Shown: positions 7,313 to 52,373 of the stretch, piece by piece
Numbering within the stretch: position 1 is the first letter of the stretch
Layout: each line of letters begins with the position of its first letter
Assembly (NCBI GenBank): GCA_001825035.1
Contig: MHUO01000004.1
Coordinates: forward strand, 155,476-219,475
Direction of reading: 5' to 3'
DNA: 64,000 bases
Source of the DNA: Candidatus Wildermuthbacteria bacterium RIFOXYD1_FULL_50_12
Lineage (GTDB): Bacteria > Patescibacteriota > Minisyncoccia > Minisyncoccales > UBA10102
Made by a program: the position numbers and the translations under genes
The notes under the pieces: model-generated
What the model was told of the DNA's origin: nothing
What the model saw: only the letters and a program-made list of their open reading frames with translations
The model's database searches: none

Positions 7313-8340
7313 AAATACTGTTTTTGGGTTTGGGTTCCATGGGTCAGCGCCACCTTCAGAATATCCAGAAGCTTCAGAAAGAGAAAAAACTTCCAGACAA
7401 CCTTGAGTTTTTTGGTTTGGTGCGGCCAGAAGACAGGCACCGCGTGATACGAGAAGGGCAGGAAAAGAAAGTGGCAGATATCAGCGAATATTACGGCATG
7501 ACTCCCGTAGTTTCCTGGACAGAAGCAAAAAAGGTGCGGCCAGATGCGGTGTTTGTTACCAACCCAAGCTCGCTGCATATCCCAAGTGCGCTCGAATTTG
7601 CCCGTTTGGGAAGTGACTTGTTTATTGAAAAGCCGCTGGGCCACACCACAAGGGGATTGAGTGAGCTAGAGCGTATTGTAAAGAGCAAAAAGCTGATTAC
7701 GATGGTAGGATTTCAAACCAGGTTCAACCCGCTGGTTACCAAAATAAAGGATCTTGTAGGGAGCAAAAGAGGAAGGATTATAAGTGCAGCCTTTACTTGG
7801 AACACGTTTTTGCCTGCGCACCATATATATGAAGATTATTCCAAAGGATACGCAGCAAGAAAAGATTTGGGCGGCGGGGTGGTACTTGGTTTAATTCATG
7901 AGATTGATTTGGTGTGTTATTTGCTTGGCTTACCCAAAAAGGTTATTGCTGTAGGAGGGAAGTTGAGCAATTTGCATATGAATGTGGAAGATACAGTAGC
8001 AGCCCTTCTTTTGTACGCGAAAAAAGGGAAAACATTTCCCGTGACACTTCGGCTTTCCTATGCACAAACAAAAGAAGTGCGCAAATTTGAGTTTCAATTC
8101 GAAGACAGTACATTATTTGTGGATAGTGTGGGAAACAGGTATGCTTTGTACGGGAAAGAAGGGGAATTGGTGGAAGAAAAAACCGACTCGACAATCAGAA
8201 ACGAATTGTTTGAAGCAGAGGTTTTACACCTTTTTGAGTGTGTTAACGTGCGCAAAGAGTCCAACGTCAATATCGTTGAAGCAAGAAAAAGTCTGCAAGT
8301 GGCGTTCGCAATAAAAAGGCAAATTGCAAAAAAGGTATGA
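7309..8340 (+). CDS. Gfo/Idh/MocA-family NAD(P)-dependent oxidoreductase
   Basis: MKILFLGLGSMGQRHLQN Rossmann N-terminus and EKPLGHT motif. Internal ATG 7309 overlaps the upstream stop (ATGA). Confidence 0.7.
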   Translation: MKILFLGLGSMGQRHLQNIQKLQKEKKLPDNLEFFGLVRPEDRHRVIREGQEKKVADISEYYGMTPVVSWTEAKKVRPDAVFVTNPSSLHIPSALEFARLGSDLFIEKPLGHTTRGLSELERIVKSKKLITMVGFQTRFNPLVTKIKDLVGSKRGRIISAAFTWNTFLPAHHIYEDYSKGYAARKDLGGGVVLGLIHEIDLVCYLLGLPKKVIAVGGKLSNLHMNVEDTVAALLLYAKKGKTFPVTLRLSYAQTKEVRKFEFQFEDSTLFVDSVGNRYALYGKEGELVEEKTDSTIRNELFEAEVLHLFECVNVRKESNVNIVEARKSLQVAFAIKRQIAKKV

Positions 8341-9125
8341 AACAAACAGAAACAATGAACAAATTTGATCTTTCGGGGCGTGTGTGCCTCATCACTGGAG
8401 GAATTGGTCTTTTAGGGCAAAGGCATAGAGGGGCAATTCGGGATGCGGGCGGCATACCCGTTACCTTGGATATCGTCGGAGAACCGGATTTTCTCGTCGA
8501 CATTACAGATAAGAAAGCTTTAGAGGAAACGCGAGAAAAGATTCTTGAGAAATATGGTCGTATTGATACTCTTATCAACAATGCAGCAAACAACCCCAAG
8601 ATGGAAAGTACGCAAGCCGGAAAGAATTGGACTAGGTTTGAAAATTTCCCAGAAAAAGTTTGGCAGGAGGATTTGGATGTCGGGCTTAAGGGAGCATTTC
8701 TATGCAGTCAGGTTTTCGGTTCATATATGGCTTCTCAAGGTAGAGGTGTTATTCTAAACATCTCTTCAGATCTTGGTTTGATCGCGCCGGACCAGCGCAT
8801 ATATCGAAAAGAGGGGCTTTCAGAAGAGCAGCAAATGGTAAAACCGGTTACGTATTCGCTCGTAAAGCACGGACTTATTGGGTTAACTCGCTACTTGGCA
8901 ACTTATTGGGCAGAAAAAGGTGTTAGAGTGAACGCGCTGTGCCCCGGTGGGATATTGAATGGGCAAGATGAAGATTTTGTAAAGCGGCTTTCAAATCTTA
9001 TTCCCATGGAAAGGATGGCAAATAAAGATGAGTATCAGGCCGTGGTTATCTTCTTGCTATCAGATGCTTCTTCGTATATGACCGGATCAGTTCTTGCAAT
9101 AGATGGGGGTCGAACGTGTTGGTAA
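8337..9125 (+). CDS. SDR-family short-chain dehydrogenase/reductase
   Basis: ITGGIGLLG glycine motif, NNAA motif, YxxxK (YSLVKHG). Confidence 0.7.
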   Translation: MKQTETMNKFDLSGRVCLITGGIGLLGQRHRGAIRDAGGIPVTLDIVGEPDFLVDITDKKALEETREKILEKYGRIDTLINNAANNPKMESTQAGKNWTRFENFPEKVWQEDLDVGLKGAFLCSQVFGSYMASQGRGVILNISSDLGLIAPDQRIYRKEGLSEEQQMVKPVTYSLVKHGLIGLTRYLATYWAEKGVRVNALCPGGILNGQDEDFVKRLSNLIPMERMANKDEYQAVVIFLLSDASSYMTGSVLAIDGGRTCW

Positions 9126-33981: not shown

Positions 33982-34110
33982 ATGCGATACAAACGTTGCA
34001 TATTGCAAAAACCAATGCCAGCAAGAAAAAGAAAGAGAGCTTCTGCGAAAGGAAAGAGTCGTAAGAGAACGACGAAGAAGAAGACGACCCGACGCAGAAG
34101 GAGAAGATAA
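33982..34110 (+). CDS. 42-aa polybasic mini-ORF (MRYKRCILQKPMPARKRKRASAKGKSRKRTTKKKTTRRRRRR) with SD and its own terminator
   Basis: AAGGAAGAGAAGG precedes ATG 33982. A strong terminator follows at 34125-34160. Not in the ORF track because it is under 60 aa. Confidence 0.3.
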   Translation: MRYKRCILQKPMPARKRKRASAKGKSRKRTTKKKTTRRRRRR

Positions 34111-34124
34111 TTCTCTTTCCGAAT

Positions 34125-34160
34125 CCCGCCCCGACGTTATGTCGGGGCGGATTTGTTTTT
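34125..34160 (+). terminator. Intrinsic terminator (10-bp GC stem CCGCCCCGAC/GUCGGGGCGG plus U-tract)
   Basis: Perfect stem at 34126-34135 / 34141-34150, loop GUUAU, then AUUUGUUUUU. Confidence 0.65.
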
Positions 34161-34191: not shown

Positions 34192-36729
34192 ATGGCGCTC
34201 TTGGGCAACATCTTTAAAAAATCGCAGGATTCCTTTCTGAAGGAAGCACAGGAAATTGTTTTGCGTATAAACGTGCTGGAGTCGGAATTTGAGAAACTCA
34301 GTTCAGAAGCGCTCAAAGCAAAAACGCAAGAACTCAAAGAAAAACTTGAAGCAGGGGCTTCTCTTGCTGACTTGCTTCCCGTTGCATTTGCACTCATTCG
34401 CGAATCCTCAAAACGCACGCTCGGCCAGCGGCATTTTGACGTGCAGCTGGTGGGAGGCATAGTGCTCCACGCAGGCAAGATCGCGGAAATGAAAACGGGC
34501 GAAGGGAAAACGCTCGTTGCCACCTTGCCTGCGTACCTCAACGCGCTGGAAGAGAAAGGAGTACACGTGGTTACGGTAAACGATTATTTGGCAAAGCGTG
34601 ACGCCGTGTGGATGGGACAGATTTATTATACGCTCGGAATGAGCGTGGGGTGCATTGTGCACGACGCTTCCTATATATACGATCCCGCATTCGCGCAAGA
34701 AAACGCAGAGAGAGATGAGGCGCGCGACACTCTCGGTAGTTTTCGAGTTGAAGACACATATCTGCGGCCCGTGTCGCGCAAGGAAGCATACGCGGCAGAC
34801 ATTACCTATGGCACGAACAATGAGTTCGGATTTGATTTTCTGCGCGACAACATGGTGTACGATTTGAGTCAGCAGACGCAGCCCCGCCTGCGCGGGCAGG
34901 GAGGACATCACTTTGCCATTATCGACGAGGTAGATTCCATTTTGATTGACGAGGCAAGAACTCCCTTGATTATTTCAGCTCCCGACGAAGAGAGTTCTTC
35001 TTGGTACAGGGATTTTGCGAAAATAACGCCCCAGCTCAAAAAGGATACGGACTACGAAGTAGATGAAAAGCTGAAAGCCGTAACTATTACGGACGCTGGC
35101 ATCAATAAAGTGGAAGGGCTTTTGGGTGTGCAGAATATTTATGAAGAACGGGGAATGAAATATGTTCGCCATTTGGAGAACGCCCTGCGCGCGCAAGCAT
35201 TGTTTCAGAGAGATCGAGATTATGTGGTGCGCCAAGGCCAGGTGGTAATTATTGATGAATTCACGGGCCGCTTGCTTCCCGGGCGCCGGTATTCAGCTGG
35301 ATTGCATCAGGCACTGGAAGCGAAAGAAGGAGTTCAGGTACAGCCAGAGTCGCTCACGTTGGCCTCTGTGACGTTTCAGAATTATTTTAGAATGTACAAA
35401 AAACTTGCGGGGATGACCGGAACTGCTTTTACGTCAGAAGAAGAGTTTTATAGTGTGTATGGTTTGGAAGTGAAGGTGGTTCCCACGAATAAACCCATGA
35501 TCAGGCAGGATTTGTCAGATCGCATTTACCGGACAGAACAGGGAAAATTTCGCGCCGTGGTCCGGGAAATTAAAGCGCGGCACGAAAAGGGCCAGCCCCT
35601 GCTTGTGGGCACCGTGTCTATACAGAAAAACGAGTATCTCGGCAAATTGCTCCAAACAGAAGGAATTCCCCATAACATTCTCAACGCAAAACACCATGAA
35701 CAGGAAGCGCAGATTATTGCGCAAGCCGGGCGTTTGGGAGCTGTAACCGTGGCAACCAATATGGCTGGTCGCGGTGTGGATATTGTCTTGGGCGGGAATC
35801 CGCCAAGCGAGGAGGAGGCGACAAAAGTGAAAGAAATGGGTGGCCTGCATGTAATTGGCACCGAACGCCACGAAGCTCGGAGAATAGACAACCAGCTGAG
35901 GGGGCGGGCAGGCAGACAAGGGGATCCTGGCTCCACGCAATTCTTTGTTTCCATGGAAGACGATTTGATGCGTATTTTCGGGGGAGAGCGCATCAAAGGG
36001 TTGATGGAAAAACTCCGTATGCCAGAAGACGAGTCTATTGAGAATAGAATACTTTCGAACGCGCTTGAGTCGGCGCAGTCCAAAATTGAGGGTTTTCATT
36101 TTGACGCGAGAAAGCACGTATTGCAGTATGATGATGTGTTAAACAAGCACCGAGACGCTTTGTATCGCCAACGCCGCGAAATTTTAGAGAAAGCAGAAAA
36201 GGGAGAGCTGAGAGAATATATAATACATATGGCAGGGGAGCACGGTGTCTCTAAAGACGATTACGAGAAGAAAGAGCGGGAGTTGGGCGAGGAAAATATG
36301 CGGCAAGCGGAAAAAATTGTCGCCTTGCGCGCCATTGACTCTTTGTGGGTGGGGCATTTGGAAGAAATGGAACATTTGCGAGATTCTGTGCGTTTACGCG
36401 CCTATGGTCAGCGCGATCCCTTGGTGGAATATAAGACCGAAGGACATCGTATGTTCCAGCAGTTGTTGAGCGCCGTGGAGGAAACCATTGCAAAAACTCT
36501 TATGCAGGTGCAGCTTGCGCCCCAAGCAACCCCTCCCATTCAGCAAAATGTGAGTTATTCCAGCCCGGCGAATATGTCTGCTTCAGCTGTGGGTGCGGCC
36601 GCCTCCGTCCGCCCCGGGCGGACTTCGGCGGCTCAAAAGGTGGGGCGTAACAACCCCTGCCCCTGCGGAGCGACCCATCCCGATGGTCGTCCAATGAAGT
36701 ACAAGCATTGCCATGGGAAGAATCCTTGA
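34192..36729 (+). CDS. secA: Preprotein translocase ATPase SecA with C-terminal SEC-C zinc motif
   Basis: DEAD-like motor motifs (MKTGEGKT, DEVDSILIDEARTPLIIS) and C-terminal CPCGATHPDGRPMKYKHCHG. Start at internal ATG 34192 (MALLGNIFKK...). Confidence 0.9.
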   Translation: MALLGNIFKKSQDSFLKEAQEIVLRINVLESEFEKLSSEALKAKTQELKEKLEAGASLADLLPVAFALIRESSKRTLGQRHFDVQLVGGIVLHAGKIAEMKTGEGKTLVATLPAYLNALEEKGVHVVTVNDYLAKRDAVWMGQIYYTLGMSVGCIVHDASYIYDPAFAQENAERDEARDTLGSFRVEDTYLRPVSRKEAYAADITYGTNNEFGFDFLRDNMVYDLSQQTQPRLRGQGGHHFAIIDEVDSILIDEARTPLIISAPDEESSSWYRDFAKITPQLKKDTDYEVDEKLKAVTITDAGINKVEGLLGVQNIYEERGMKYVRHLENALRAQALFQRDRDYVVRQGQVVIIDEFTGRLLPGRRYSAGLHQALEAKEGVQVQPESLTLASVTFQNYFRMYKKLAGMTGTAFTSEEEFYSVYGLEVKVVPTNKPMIRQDLSDRIYRTEQGKFRAVVREIKARHEKGQPLLVGTVSIQKNEYLGKLLQTEGIPHNILNAKHHEQEAQIIAQAGRLGAVTVATNMAGRGVDIVLGGNPPSEEEATKVKEMGGLHVIGTERHEARRIDNQLRGRAGRQGDPGSTQFFVSMEDDLMRIFGGERIKGLMEKLRMPEDESIENRILSNALESAQSKIEGFHFDARKHVLQYDDVLNKHRDALYRQRREILEKAEKGELREYIIHMAGEHGVSKDDYEKKERELGEENMRQAEKIVALRAIDSLWVGHLEEMEHLRDSVRLRAYGQRDPLVEYKTEGHRMFQQLLSAVEETIAKTLMQVQLAPQATPPIQQNVSYSSPANMSASAVGAAASVRPGRTSAAQKVGRNNPCPCGATHPDGRPMKYKHCHGKNP

Positions 36730-36806
36730 GAATCTTCCAAACGAAGCGGAGTCCGCCGTAGCCTTGGCGAAGGCGGGCGGCTCTGGCAAAAAATATAAAA
36801 GATGTC

Positions 36807-37334
36807 ATGGGGCGTAAGAGAATGAATATTATTGAAGAATTCAAAAAAGTAAGAGATATCCCGTACCGAATTCCGTTGTCTCCGCAAGAACCCGATAATT
36901 GTTGCTCTGGAAAATCGGAGCGATTGTTTAAGATATTCGAGGAAGTCGGTTATGAGGTGCGGTATATAGTTTGCACTTTTCACTGGAGCGATATGAGGTT
37001 ACCAGCAAAGGTGCAAGAAATTGCCCACGAAGATAAATGTACGCACAGCTATCTTGAAGTAAAGATAGGAGATGAATGGATAAAAGTTGACGCGACGTGG
37101 GACAAAGAGTTAAAAAGCGTGTTTAATGTTAATGATTGGAATGGCAAATCGCACACAAAAGTGGCAGTTCCAGTAAAAGAATGCTTCTCGTCGGAAGAAA
37201 GCGCGGAGATTATGCAGAAAGGCACAACAGAAGAAGCCACAAAGGAAGACCGGCAGAAAAATGGAGAATTCTATAAAGCATTCAACGATTGGTTAGCAGA
37301 AATTAGAATAAAATCCCTGCGGGGTAGTGAATAA
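36807..37334 (+). CDS. Transglutaminase-like cysteine peptidase superfamily protein
   Basis: Cys...His...Asp spacing (NCCSGKSERLF ... THSYLEVKIG ... KVDATWD) as in transglutaminase-like cores. Begins MGRK, with the ATG inside the upstream CHG codons. Confidence 0.45.
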   Translation: MGRKRMNIIEEFKKVRDIPYRIPLSPQEPDNCCSGKSERLFKIFEEVGYEVRYIVCTFHWSDMRLPAKVQEIAHEDKCTHSYLEVKIGDEWIKVDATWDKELKSVFNVNDWNGKSHTKVAVPVKECFSSEESAEIMQKGTTEEATKEDRQKNGEFYKAFNDWLAEIRIKSLRGSE

Positions 37335-37398
37335 AGCGTAAAAGTGCCATGGGGCGTGAATGTGCCAACCGGCTGGCGCATTTGGAAAAGGATAAGAA

Positions 37399-38118
37399 GT
37401 GCCGTGGGAAGTAAGTATGGTAGTTGAACCAAAATTTTATCAAAACTGGGAGGATGACAGTCACTGCCTTCAATCGTCCGTGATGATAGTTTTGAATACA
37501 TTAAACAGAAAGGTAACATGGGATGAGGTAAATAAAATGACAGATTATGAAGACGGCTTATACTCTTGGGTGCCGCGCGCTGTTGTTGCGCTTGCAGAAC
37601 GAATTCCTGGGACGAGGCATATTAGTGTAATGGACTATGGAAAATTCGCGGAAAAAGGTGAGGAATATCTAAAAGAGTTTATGCCTGGAGAGTGGTTTGA
37701 GGATCAAAAAAGAAATGCTTCTGTTGGATTCCAGAAAGAGCAGAAGGCAGCACAAGACCTCATTCAGAAGAACCTTCTTGAGCAAAAAGTAAGATTTACA
37801 AAAGAGGACTTCGAGAGTTTACTTGATAAACATTTGTTGATAGCGCTTGTTAATGGGAAAAAATTAGCTCAACTTGAGGGTAACGTGGGACATTTTGTTG
37901 TAGTTTATGGGCAAGATGAGGAAAACTTTATTATTCATGATCCTGGATTGCCAGCACGAGAAGCCTGGAAAGCCCAAAAGGATTTATTTTTACACGCATT
38001 TCAGGGAGAATTGATTCTCGTACCTAAAGGTGATGTACCGATTGGAGTAGAAGTCAGCCGCAACGATCCCTGCCTCTGCGGAAGCGGCAAAAAATATAAG
38101 AAGTGTCATGGGAAATAA
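37399..38118 (+). CDS. Papain-like (C39-like) cysteine peptidase domain protein carrying a C-terminal SecA-type SEC-C zinc motif
   Basis: YQNWEDDSHCLQSSVMIVL (Gln/Cys), GHFVVVYG..IHDP (His/Asp), and C-terminal NDPCLCGSGKKYKKCHGK*. Confidence 0.45.
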   Translation: MPWEVSMVVEPKFYQNWEDDSHCLQSSVMIVLNTLNRKVTWDEVNKMTDYEDGLYSWVPRAVVALAERIPGTRHISVMDYGKFAEKGEEYLKEFMPGEWFEDQKRNASVGFQKEQKAAQDLIQKNLLEQKVRFTKEDFESLLDKHLLIALVNGKKLAQLEGNVGHFVVVYGQDEENFIIHDPGLPAREAWKAQKDLFLHAFQGELILVPKGDVPIGVEVSRNDPCLCGSGKKYKKCHGK

Positions 38119-38470
38119 AACCATGGAAGGAGCATCTTTACAAGCAATTGAGGATTATTATTACCGACACGGTTTGAGAGGTAGTAAACTTAGAAAAGCG
38201 ACCGAAAACGATCAGGAGTATATGACGATTCTTAAAGATCGCTGGGCAAAACTGACTAAAAAATTTCCAGTTAAATCACGGGACAGAAAAAGGTATATTT
38301 TATCTACCGATCAAGATTATCAAATTTTAGATAAGATATATAAGCTTGAACGTAAGAAACTGTCAGACAAAGATAAGGCCCTGGTAAAGTTAGTAAGAAC
38401 TCAGCTTGAGCATCACTGGAGAGCACCGATTATAAAATTTCTAAATCAACTACTTAAGAAATACCGTTAA
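38108..38470 (+). CDS. Hypothetical Lys-rich 120-aa protein
   Basis: Complete ORF. Start MGNK is embedded in the CHGK codons of the upstream gene. Confidence 0.35.
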   Translation: MGNKTMEGASLQAIEDYYYRHGLRGSKLRKATENDQEYMTILKDRWAKLTKKFPVKSRDRKRYILSTDQDYQILDKIYKLERKKLSDKDKALVKLVRTQLEHHWRAPIIKFLNQLLKKYR

Positions 38471-38504
38471 TCCCTGTGGATGTAGAGATAAGATCAAGTA
38501 GATC

Positions 38505-39044
38505 ATGATTTATTTCATTACCGGCAACAAGAATAAACTCGAAGAGGTGAAAGCGGTATTGCCCGAAGTAGAACAATTAGATATTGACTTGCTTGAAATT
38601 CAAGAGATTGATTCAAAGGAAATCATAAAGAAGAAGTTGTCAGAAGCGTTCAATCGCGCCGAAGGAGAGTTTATTGTAGAGGATACATCTTTGCACCTGA
38701 ATTGTTTAAAAGGATTGCCAGGACCATTGGTAAAATGGTTTTTGAAAACGATCGGAAATGATGGTTTGGCTGGAATTGCTGAAAAATTAGGAAGCAGCAG
38801 GGCCGAAGCAAAAACGATTATTGGGTACGCGAAAAATCATGAAGAAATCTATTTTTTCGAGGGTGTAATAAAAGGGCAAATAGTAAAACCGCGGGGAGAA
38901 TCAGATTTCGGCTGGGATCCGATATTTTTACCAGATGGTCATGAAAAGACATTTGCTGAAATGGGCAGAGAAGAAAAGAATAAAATCAGCATGAGGAGGG
39001 AGGCACTAAATAAGCTAAGTGAATTCTTGCGGGCGCAGGAATAA
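38505..39044 (+). CDS. rdgB: Non-canonical purine NTP pyrophosphatase (Ham1/RdgB, ITPase)
   Basis: TGNKNKLEE and FGWDPIF motifs. Confidence 0.8.
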
Positions 39045-39057
39045 AAACAAAAAGGCC

Positions 39058-39474
39058 ATGGGAGATAACGGTAATCAATTTGTAGGGGTTCGGAAGAGCG
39101 AAAAGCACGGGAGGGGATTGTTTGCATTAAGAAATTTTGTAAAGGGAGAAATGATATATTCTTTTCCTTTGGAAAGAGTAGTAAGTCCACGTCAAATCCA
39201 GGGACTTTCGGAAGAAGAGCGAGATCATCTTGATAAGATAGGTGAAGATGAATATGAAATTATCCAGCCCCCTCTCTGTTATGTGAATCATTCTTGCGAT
39301 CCGGATATTTAGGAGGCGCTAGAAGGGAGGGCAAGAGTAGGATATGCTTTGCGAGATATAATGAGCGGAGAAGAGTTGACGGTGGATTATGATAAGACGG
39401 CGTATCTTGAGATGCCATTCGAATGCCACTGCGGCTCAAAAAACTGCAGAGGACTCGTGCGAGGTAAGAGGTAA
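39058..39474 (+). pseudogene. SET-domain protein gene interrupted by an in-frame TAG (nonsense or sequencing error)
   Basis: GRGLFA...NHSCDPDI, then TAG at 39313-39315, then in the same frame EALEGRARVGYALRDIMSGEELTVDYDK...CHCGSKNCRG (post-SET Cys cluster). TAG is a normal stop elsewhere in the window. Confidence 0.55.
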
Positions 39475-51261: not shown

Positions 51262-52373
51262 TCCCTACGCTTAAAGATGTTGAAATTCAAGGGAGGCGAG
51301 TTCTGGTTCGCGCAAGCTTGAATGTCCCCGTGGAGAATGGAGTAATCCAAGATGATTTTCGCCTGCGGGAAAGTACGGCAACCATCCGTTTCCTTACGGA
51401 ACGCAACGCCAAATGCGTGGTGTTTGGGCATTTGGGGAGACCAGCACCAATCTGGGAAATCCACCCCGTCATCCGACAGGGTGCCCCGTCGCATGACGGG
51501 GCAGATCCAAAAGAACTCAGCCTCTCGCCGATTGCAAAGCGGATGGAGGAGCTTTTAGGGAAAGAGGTAAAGTTTCTTGCAGATCCCATCGGAGAAGGGG
51601 TGCGAAAACGCATTGAGGCGGTGCAATTCGGAGATGTTGCGCTGCTCGAGAATATTCGCTTTTACTACGGAGAGAAGGAGAATGATCCTGTTTTTGCCAA
51701 GCACCTTGCGGCATTGGGAGATTTGTATGTCAATGACGCGTTTGCCGTTTGCCATCGGGCGCATGCTTCTGTTGTGGGGCTCCCTCCTTTGCTTCCTTCT
51801 GCCATGGGTCTGCTTTTGGAAAAAGAGGTGAGCGTGTTGGGGAAAATTCGAGAGAGGCCCGAAAAACCGATGGTTGTTGTGGTGGGTGGAGCGAAAGTGG
51901 AAACAAAAGCCGCTTTTTTGACAGCAATATCAAAGCATGCCGATGTGATTCTCCTGGGCAACCTCATTTCAGAAGAAATCAAAGAAAAAGGCCTGCCTGC
52001 CGGTAGGCAGGGACTGCAGGTTGTCGAGGATGCGGAGCTGGTATATGCGACAGACGGGGTGGATGGCGGCTTTGATCTCGGTCCGGACACCGTTCAGCGC
52101 TTCATCGGAAAAATGAAAGGGGCAAGAACGATTTTTTGGGCGGGACCTTTGGGTAAGATAGAAGAGGAGAAGTATGAAAAAGGATCGCTTGCAGTCGCAG
52201 AGGCCATTCTCAAAAGCGGCGCGTTTGCAGTGGCAGGAGGAGGAGATTTAGGAGCATTCTTGAATAAACACAATCTTCGGGAGAAATTCGACCATGTGTC
52301 TACGGGCGGGGGAGCCATGCTCGCCTTTTTAGCCGGCGAAAAACTTCCGGGTTTGGAGGCATTGGAACAATGA
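51258..52373 (+). CDS. pgk: Phosphoglycerate kinase
   Basis: RVLVRASLNVPVENGVIQDDFRL N-terminus and C-terminal GGGA motif. Confidence 0.85.
   Translation: MIPTLKDVEIQGRRVLVRASLNVPVENGVIQDDFRLRESTATIRFLTERNAKCVVFGHLGRPAPIWEIHPVIRQGAPSHDGADPKELSLSPIAKRMEELLGKEVKFLADPIGEGVRKRIEAVQFGDVALLENIRFYYGEKENDPVFAKHLAALGDLYVNDAFAVCHRAHASVVGLPPLLPSAMGLLLEKEVSVLGKIRERPEKPMVVVVGGAKVETKAAFLTAISKHADVILLGNLISEEIKEKGLPAGRQGLQVVEDAELVYATDGVDGGFDLGPDTVQRFIGKMKGARTIFWAGPLGKIEEEKYEKGSLAVAEAILKSGAFAVAGGGDLGAFLNKHNLREKFDHVSTGGGAMLAFLAGEKLPGLEALEQ

Follow-up and report, generated by a model that had tools for sequence, protein, structure and literature searches.

Results

Six SEC-C-derived segments follow secA

A window of 64,000 nucleotides (nt) from Candidatus Wildermuthbacteria bacterium RIFOXYD1_FULL_50_12 (contig MHUO01000004.1) contains, between 36.66 and 39.07 kb, six segments derived from SEC-C zinc-finger tails (J1 to J6; Table 1), which lie in the run of genes that follows secA. 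J1 and J5 are tails in use at the ends of SecA and of a C39-like protein respectively (J1 as a putatively functional variant), and J2, J3, J4 and J6 are non-coding vestiges. We consider it fairly probable that these vestiges are recombination or insertion scars left at tightly packed gene junctions and not a special translation device. The genes of the locus are all encoded on the plus strand, in the order murB, secA, a transglutaminase-like gene (TG), the C39-like gene with its SEC-C tail, a gene for a 115-amino-acid (aa) protein, ham1, a SET-domain gene, several NUDIX genes and secDF. Hereafter, W designates the window and L-numbers the compared loci, L001–L005 being five identical assemblies.

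An initial annotation of this DNA had reported recurring TGYCATGGG junctions, and their clustering at gene junctions was confirmed. TGYCATGGG occurs 5 times in the 64 kb for 0.76 expected occurrences (four of them at 36709, 36803, 37345 and 38104), and a variant junction, TGCCGTGGG, is present at 37400. The longer 21-nt tail pattern AARAARTGYCAYGGGARRTRA (≤3 mismatches) gave 6 matches for 0.08 expected, 5 of the 6 being clustered within 2.3 kb (36797–39068), including the sixth junction at 39048–39068. A six-frame regular-expression scan of the window showed that SEC-C-like tails are confined to the array region. Matches outside the array, at 8032 (minus strand, within an oxidoreductase gene) and at 51800 (within pgk), are due to chance. 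These two lone short-pattern matches, which do fall inside ordinary genes, lend some support to the idea that the array itself is a fortuitous resemblance between unrelated matches or a product of mis-joined reads. However, the 2.5-kb region 36600–39100 is 100% identical across five independent assemblies from different samples (one public copy being that of Parcubacteria group bacterium GW2011_GWA1_49_26), and orthologous scars are present in unrelated assemblies. Because of this identity and of the enrichment of the 21-nt pattern, both chance and assembly artefact are excluded, and we leave them practically no weight.

Two tails in use and four vestiges

The segments were compared with the Pfam SEC-C family (PF02810), for which at least 20.4 bits over the whole 19-residue model and the four metal ligands CxC...C[HC] were required. 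J5 scores 39.8 bits over the whole model (positions 1–19), the gathering score being 20.4, and has the four ligands. J1 scores 17.1 bits, below the cut-off, because of its 14-residue loop; all four ligands are present. This long-loop ending is common to J1 and L067 (CPCGKKDPKTGKPMKYKKCC...) and appears to be a genuine SecA variant, which may bind metal. SecA tails vary among the loci: W and L067 (5050–5125) have the long-loop form CPCG-x8/9-MKYKxC[HC], that of L067 ending with CCYPKFG* (asterisks, stop codons), and SecA of L085 (1760–1850) ends with KKCGMLNTAEHQKLMSQKR*, without an adjacent fourth ligand. All the translations given in the initial annotation were reproduced; the secA end, presented there as KYKHCHGK*, in fact reads KYKHCHGKNP*.

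The four ligands found in J1 and J5 are incomplete in J2, J3, J4 and J6. J2 matches model positions 8–18 only (22 bits), both N-terminal Cys being missing, and its best matches are real secA tails from elsewhere (28/33 with L010, 27/33 with L081). J3 lacks one Cys and has an internal stop. J4 has Arg in place of His and no CxC, yet matches J1 at 19/24 positions (z about 6). J6 was correctly identified as a sixth junction that starts the SET gene, but its sequence is GGCCATGGG, in which the Cys codon is mutated to GGC (Gly) so that it reads KQKGHGR*; it has two mismatches to the 21-nt pattern, its CAT-GGG provides the SET start codon, and it matches the L064 vestige at 22/33 positions. The earlier proposal that the fragments are genuine SEC-C derivatives is supported, the C39 tail scoring 39.8 bits and the half-motif mini-ORF (open reading frame) at J2 22 bits. 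Because of the J3 internal stop, the absence of the first two Cys from J2, the His-to-Arg change in J4 and the Cys-to-Gly change in J6, the scars appear to have no coding role.

Several other readings of these segments were discarded. Comparison of the 48 nt upstream of GSGKKYK in J2 with real secA tails gave z = 0.28, which leaves the last 39 nt, and not a full-length decayed tail, as the claimed vestige. Programmed frameshifting that would join TG or SecA to a downstream tail is ruled out by the J3 stop and the missing ligands. A REP/MITE-like (repetitive extragenic palindrome or miniature inverted-repeat transposable element) hairpin was considered for the J1–J2 spacer; its sequence, GCGAAGGCGGG, occurs once only in the window and the folding of the spacer is not significant. 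No promoters or terminators were found at the junctions. Finally, the 34-codon and 21-codon mini-ORFs that run from J1 to J2 and from J3 to J4 are probably not genes: no bridging ORF equivalent to the 34-codon one exists among the relatives compared, and the conservation of mini-ORFs, which had been put forward as a check, was not observed.

Tail vestiges flank the TG gene in related loci

The TG family is widespread in bacteria of the Candidate Phyla Radiation (CPR) and in genomes labelled as DPANN archaea. In L006, L064 and L065, secA ends with ...CPCGSGKK[YF]KKC[HC]G[AK]* and the TG start (MNII) lies within ~6 nt of it. The spacing and sequence of the J2–TG junction of W are nearly the same as those of this true secA–TG junction (L006). 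Because the junction matches real secA–TG junctions, and because J2 itself is best matched by real secA tails, J2 would be the end of a former secA tail still attached to TG. A decayed tail is also present 3' of the gene in the closest TG clade: in W (J3), in L062 (NPCGLVNKQQKCHGK*), in L064 (ENPHGLVNKYQKCHGK*) and in L065 (VNKFKNCCGA*), with an in-frame remnant in L049. In L062, a locus without secA, TG follows a dCMP deaminase gene and carries both scars. Where secA directly abuts TG or C39, the real secA tail fills the position that the vestiges occupy in W.

TG-like proteins at 38–53% identity are encoded in DPANN-labelled genomes (Woesearchaeota, Nanoarchaeota and Aenigmatarchaeota; L009, L015, L019, L021, L024, L027–L030, L052–L054, L056 and L057), which suggests inter-domain transfer or mis-binning.

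Tail vestiges precede the C39-like gene

The C39-like protein scores 32.9 bits against PF03412 (cut-off 22), with only the C-terminal half of the model covered; Cys17, His159 and His174 are invariant, and Asp175 nearly so, among 14 homologues. These features place it in the C39-like group (PF03412/PF13529) as a putative peptidase. The family is small (~16 members; a metagenome scan for further C39 loci returned 6 loci only), and its members mostly end in SEC-C. The gene adjoins secA wherever the contig is long enough, except in L076 and L080.

In L069 and L085, secA directly abuts C39 and the real secA tail stands at the position equivalent to J4. Elsewhere a scar is found at this place. In L067, secA is followed by a NYN gene, the scar KKDPATGKPIKYKKCCGR* and C39, the scar being a copy of the long-loop secA tail of the same locus; in L071, a nucleoside deoxyribosyltransferase-like gene precedes the scar SRKKCHVK* and C39. 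Contigs that do not include secA show the same arrangement, with NKYQKCHGK* before C39 in L074 and, in L079/L083, a HAD-like gene followed by LFKKCHGK* and C39. Decayed tail traces precede C39 in L075 and L080, and no tail scar does so in L076, L081 or L082. By its position and sequence, J4 appears to be the pre-C39 scar of W. Taken together, the real secA tails at the positions of vestiges, the vestiges that flank or precede genes in relatives, and the gene conversion described below fit the earlier suggestion of serial modular duplication, or of cassette exchange, at a conserved junction.

A papain-like peptidase of the C39 type with a SecA-type metal-binding tail is thus encoded just 3' of secA in several Patescibacteria lineages (W, L067, L069, L071, L081 and L085), and one public record misnames the protein 'Protein translocase subunit SecA'. 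The C39-like protein could have a link, still putative, with the ribosome or the Sec machinery, and its conserved pairing with secA provides a lead on protein export in these organisms.

Tails of secA and C39 evolve in concert

The tails inside one genome are more alike than orthologous tails. Identity between the secA and C39 tails is 91% in L081, where 44 consecutive nt are the same; the two tails of L069 are each other's best match (84%); and those of L067 have 29 consecutive nt in common, which code for the unique ending CCYPKFG*. Moreover, each of seven genomes has tails of a single state, either CH or CC. These within-genome identities and the identical runs of 29–44 nt indicate gene conversion between the secA and C39 tails, which form short direct repeats. 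A zinc-finger tail of 20 codons common to two neighbouring genes would therefore suffice to drive gene conversion.

Start codons and translational coupling

The initial annotation had proposed that successive genes are chained by Met-Gly starts embedded in the Cys-His-Gly codons. Comparison with homologues does not support this chain. Most of the 120 TG homologues begin with MNI/MDL...F.K.RDIPY, which designates ATG 36822 (MNIIEEF) and not the Met-Gly start at 36807; the longer N-termini called in some close homologues (e.g., KSVMGNESMN) are readings, in the alternate frame, of an upstream KKCHGK*. The C39-like homologues begin with MKFEPKFY, which corresponds to ATG 37417: the junction KKCRGK* is indeed present, but the upstream start that lies within CRG is a GTG. 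The N-terminus of the 115-aa protein homologues lies ~4 residues before SLQ, which corresponds to ATG 38123, residue 2–7 of the homologues aligning with query residue 7–11. SET is the only gene for which no ATG is available other than the one inside CAT-GGG, at 39058. In relatives, a Nudix gene starts at the CAT-GG ATG of the L064 scar (8585–8600) and of the L083 C39 tail (815–840), and these two starts are the clearest examples of dual-coding overlap. A start inside or at the end of the upstream ORF is hence conserved neither for TG nor for C39 or the 115-aa gene, and is seen only for SET in W and for Nudix in L064 and L083. An ATG arises inside CAT-GGG automatically from the His-Gly codons, and from these comparisons it would be used occasionally, not as a general device. 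As a practical consequence, annotations of such loci should be read with caution: gene callers push starts into the CAT-GGG codons, and mini-ORFs are called as genes.

We asked whether the tail end (TGY CAT GGG Axx TAA), which comprises an ATG, a G-rich stretch and a stop, might nevertheless be kept as a coupling device that supplies ribosomes, a start codon or a ribosome-binding site to the next gene. Each scar does end 0–5 nt before a gene start, or holds it (J2–TG, J4–C39, J5–115-aa gene and J6–SET), and the CAT-GG ATG is the sole start for SET, for the Nudix gene after the L064 scar and for the one after the L083 C39 tail. The secA tail of L069 ends with GGGAGGTGA, a perfect Shine-Dalgarno-like sequence located 2 nt 5' of the C39 ATG; in several lineages, the last ~18 nt of the tail persist before C39. 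However, for TG, C39 and the 115-aa protein, the start used by homologues is the downstream Met and not Met-Gly; the scars of L062 and L074 have no in-frame start codon, and those of L079 and L067 only GTG or TTG, which makes it unlikely that these four deliver terminating ribosomes; and the C39 genes of L076, L081 and L082 have no upstream scar at all. In addition, a crude duplex-energy test of the GGG Gly codon as a Shine-Dalgarno element (first-ATG starts and a generic anti-Shine-Dalgarno sequence, as the window contains no 16S rRNA gene) revealed no Shine-Dalgarno enrichment upstream of 53 window ORFs relative to internal controls. We therefore regard this explanation as unlikely. The conserved coupling device considered in the initial annotation is not supported, because the Met-Gly chain fails and the mini-ORFs are not conserved, even though the last ~20 nt may yet act in this manner.

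Proposed origin of the vestiges

The fragments' homology and their location in relatives, the concerted evolution of the tails and the starts used by homologues are direct observations, and the reading that they are scars of insertion or recombination accounts for them as follows. The TGYCATGGG junctions are copies of the 3' end of SEC-C coding sequence. The C39-like gene would ancestrally have been encoded right after secA, its tail being native, and in this clade secA, TG and C39 are packed so closely that only a few bases separate the secA stop from the start of the next gene. When a gene is inserted or moved at such a junction, the terminal 25–50 nt of the tail would be either duplicated or moved together with the neighbouring gene, one copy being kept in frame and working while the other decays. 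In W, a block formed of J2 (the old secA tail end), TG and the J3 scar would have been placed between the resident J1 and the older J4, which is still adjacent to the start of C39, and J6 would be a further scar, in front of SET. Homologous recombination and gene conversion among the short direct repeats would both generate and partly homogenise the copies. This order of events, like recombination as the generating mechanism, is what we infer from the arrangement. No integrase, transposase or recombinase gene was found by Pfam annotation within 10 kb on either side of the array or within the single-gene inserts. If this reading is correct, junction duplication preserves both the essential tail of the upstream protein and the start region of the downstream gene, and the scars are datable molecular fossils of gene insertion into packed operons of streamlined CPR genomes.

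Several points weigh against it. The generating event was not caught: all available genome copies are identical, so that there is no pair of empty and filled sites. A single event of the Campbell or ends-in type predicts two repeats around an insert, and the four that surround TG require at least two events. The likeness between J1 and J4 is limited to the last ~24 nt and J4 is about equally close to J5, which makes the interpretation of J1 and J4 as a nested pair weak. The last ~18 nt (KC[HC]Gx*) are recognisable before C39 across lineages in which the C39 proteins are only 43–60% identical, and this persistence may reflect selection for a putative function rather than pure decay. Lastly, repeats of 25–50 nt at 70–90% identity are short for RecA-dependent recombination.

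The scars could alternatively stem from a site-specific cassette system, in which the tail coding sequence would be the attachment site of a recombinase encoded elsewhere, much like attC/attI or the rlmH site of SCC elements (see below), and small genes would be shuttled to the secA 3' end throughout the Patescibacteria. Different single genes, each bounded by tail repeats, do occupy the same secA–C39 slot in different lineages, and TG has kept both flanking repeats in a locus without secA (L062). Transfer is also hinted at by the TG proteins of W and L064, which are 69% identical when the SecA proteins are only 56% identical. Genes with weak or faint Pfam matches to Y1_Tnp (IS200/IS605-type) lie directly after tails, at L065 1034–1573 (after the tail scar) and at L069 6814–7527 (after the C39 tail), but they may be unrelated IS200-like insertions. 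The 10 kb on either side of the array contain no recombinase gene, and the tails have no significant secondary structure: DNA folding of six tails, performed in search of an attC-like hairpin, gave z-scores of -1.8 to +0.8 and no consistent hairpin. The left ends of the scars vary (those of J2 and L067 fall after CPCG and that of J3 at NPC, while in L079 only the last 8 codons are left), and conversion tracts of 29–44 nt favour homologous over site-specific exchange. On balance, we judge such a system quite unlikely. A more elaborate version, in which the tail sequence is a dedicated site for integrase-independent or trans-acting exchange of single-gene cassettes at the secA 3' end and its end doubles as a translation-initiation region, appears quite improbable; it would amount to a minimal, integron-like form of gene shuffling in ultra-small genomes. 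As a separate observation, a perfect hairpin (L069 6735–6790; stem of ~24 bp) lies 5' of the Y1_Tnp-type gene of L069.

Other features of the locus

The coordinates of the array are given in Table 1. The SET gene contains an in-frame TAG at 39310–39312, the segments 39058–39309 and 39313–39474 sharing one frame, and is identical in the five assemblies; this TAG is either a fixed nonsense mutation, which would make SET a pseudogene, or a read-through or recoding site. Upstream of secA, the interval with murB holds a 42-codon ORF (33982–34110; called as a gene in 1 of 5 assemblies) for an extremely basic peptide, MRYKRCILQKPMPARKRKRASAKGKSRKRTTKKKTTRRRRRR, and a GC-rich hairpin lies 3' of it (~34124–34150). 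Genes for nucleotide house-cleaning are densely packed between secA and secDF (38505 to ~46000): Ham1, four or five NUDIX paralogues, Maf, a queuosine-salvage gene and an inositol monophosphatase-like gene.

Table 1. Genes, SEC-C-derived segments and mini-ORFs of the array (positions in the window)
Feature	Coordinates	Strand	Remarks
secA	34192..36729	+	845 aa; Pfam SecA domains in gene calls of identical contigs
J1, secA zinc-finger tail, long-loop variant CPCGATHPDGRPMKYKHCHGKNP*	36658..36729	+	regular-expression match; in use
34-codon mini-ORF	36713..36817	+	ATG in J1 CAT-GGG to J2 stop; gene call in 1/5 assemblies
J2, vestige, second half of canonical secA tail (GSGKKYKRCHGA*)	36779..36817	+	4 nt 5' of TG start
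Transglutaminase-like (TG) gene	36822..37334	+	170 aa; most of 130 homologues begin at the same Met; invariant Cys, His and Asp columns in alignment; one homologue with PF01841
J3, decayed SEC-C copy NPCGVVNKA*KCHGA*	37312..37359	+	first half overlapped, in another frame, by TG C-terminus
21-codon mini-ORF	37349..37414	+	J3 ATG to J4 stop; gene call in 0/5 assemblies
J4, vestigial tail end KDKKCRGK*	37388..37414	+	2 nt 5' of C39 start
C39-like gene, papain fold (putative peptidase), native SEC-C tail	37417..38118	+	233 aa; Pfam Peptidase_C39 32.9 bits, SEC-C 39.8 bits
J5, functional SEC-C tail of C39-like protein	38056..38118	+	regular expression and Pfam
115-aa protein gene, function not assigned	38123..38470	+	start MEGASLQ; 115-aa call in 3/5 identical assemblies
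Ham1/RdgB non-canonical NTP pyrophosphatase gene	38505..39044	+	Pfam 162 bits; TIGR00042 146.8 bits (cut-off 145.35)
J6, short vestige KQKGHGR*	39045..39068	+	site GGCCATGGG; reads in frame of Ham1 stop
SET-domain gene	39058..39474	+	Pfam SET, residues 18-83

Comparison with known systems

In the literature searched, neither tail-derived scars nor the association of secA with a C39-like protein bearing a metal-binding domain (MBD) is described, in agreement with the earlier remark that no described equivalent was known. Four known systems nevertheless share part of the architecture. Integrons are arrays of gene cassettes separated by attC sites, imperfect palindromes that form single-stranded hairpins, with an adjacent gene for the tyrosine recombinase IntI. 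Like integron cassettes, the genes of the array are small, co-directional, apparently promoterless and separated by a recurring sequence; unlike them, they have no IntI gene within 10 kb, and the recurring sequence is a gene remnant without an attC-like hairpin.

Integrative islands and staphylococcal cassette chromosome (SCC) elements insert at the 3' end of a conserved gene, such as a tRNA or tmRNA gene or, for SCCmec, rlmH, and produce direct repeats of that 3' end. The array resembles them in that the 3' end of the target gene is intact, a displaced duplicate lies beyond the insert, and successive insertions yield arrays of repeats. Direct repeats of a gene 3' end do flank the inserts, with J2 and J3 around TG and the secA tail plus a scar in L064, L065, L067 and L071, but the element-encoded integrase of islands is found neither in the inserts nor within 10 kb, and there is no ccr-type recombinase nearby. 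Moreover, the inserts are single housekeeping-type genes of ~0.5 kb, the repeats are 25–50 nt long with variable left ends, and the repeated sequence codes for a zinc-finger tail carried by a second gene as well, the C39-like one.

In rhs and cdiA loci, orphan C-terminal fragments lie downstream of the main gene (PMC3967940). The array has in common with these orphans a main gene followed by leftovers with a short conserved junction, and, probably, reshuffling of the locus by homologous recombination between repeats. However, what is conserved in the array is the extreme C-terminal zinc finger instead of the boundary ahead of a variable toxin domain; toxin-immunity pairs are absent, and the leftovers are too short to be re-expressed.

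SecA-like MBDs are also carried by other proteins, such as YecA and YchJ (bioRxiv 10.1101/613315). Like these, the C39-like protein has a bona fide C-terminal SEC-C/MBD; in contrast to them, its MBD is fused to a papain-like peptidase encoded next to secA, and the tails of the two genes exchange sequence within individual genomes.

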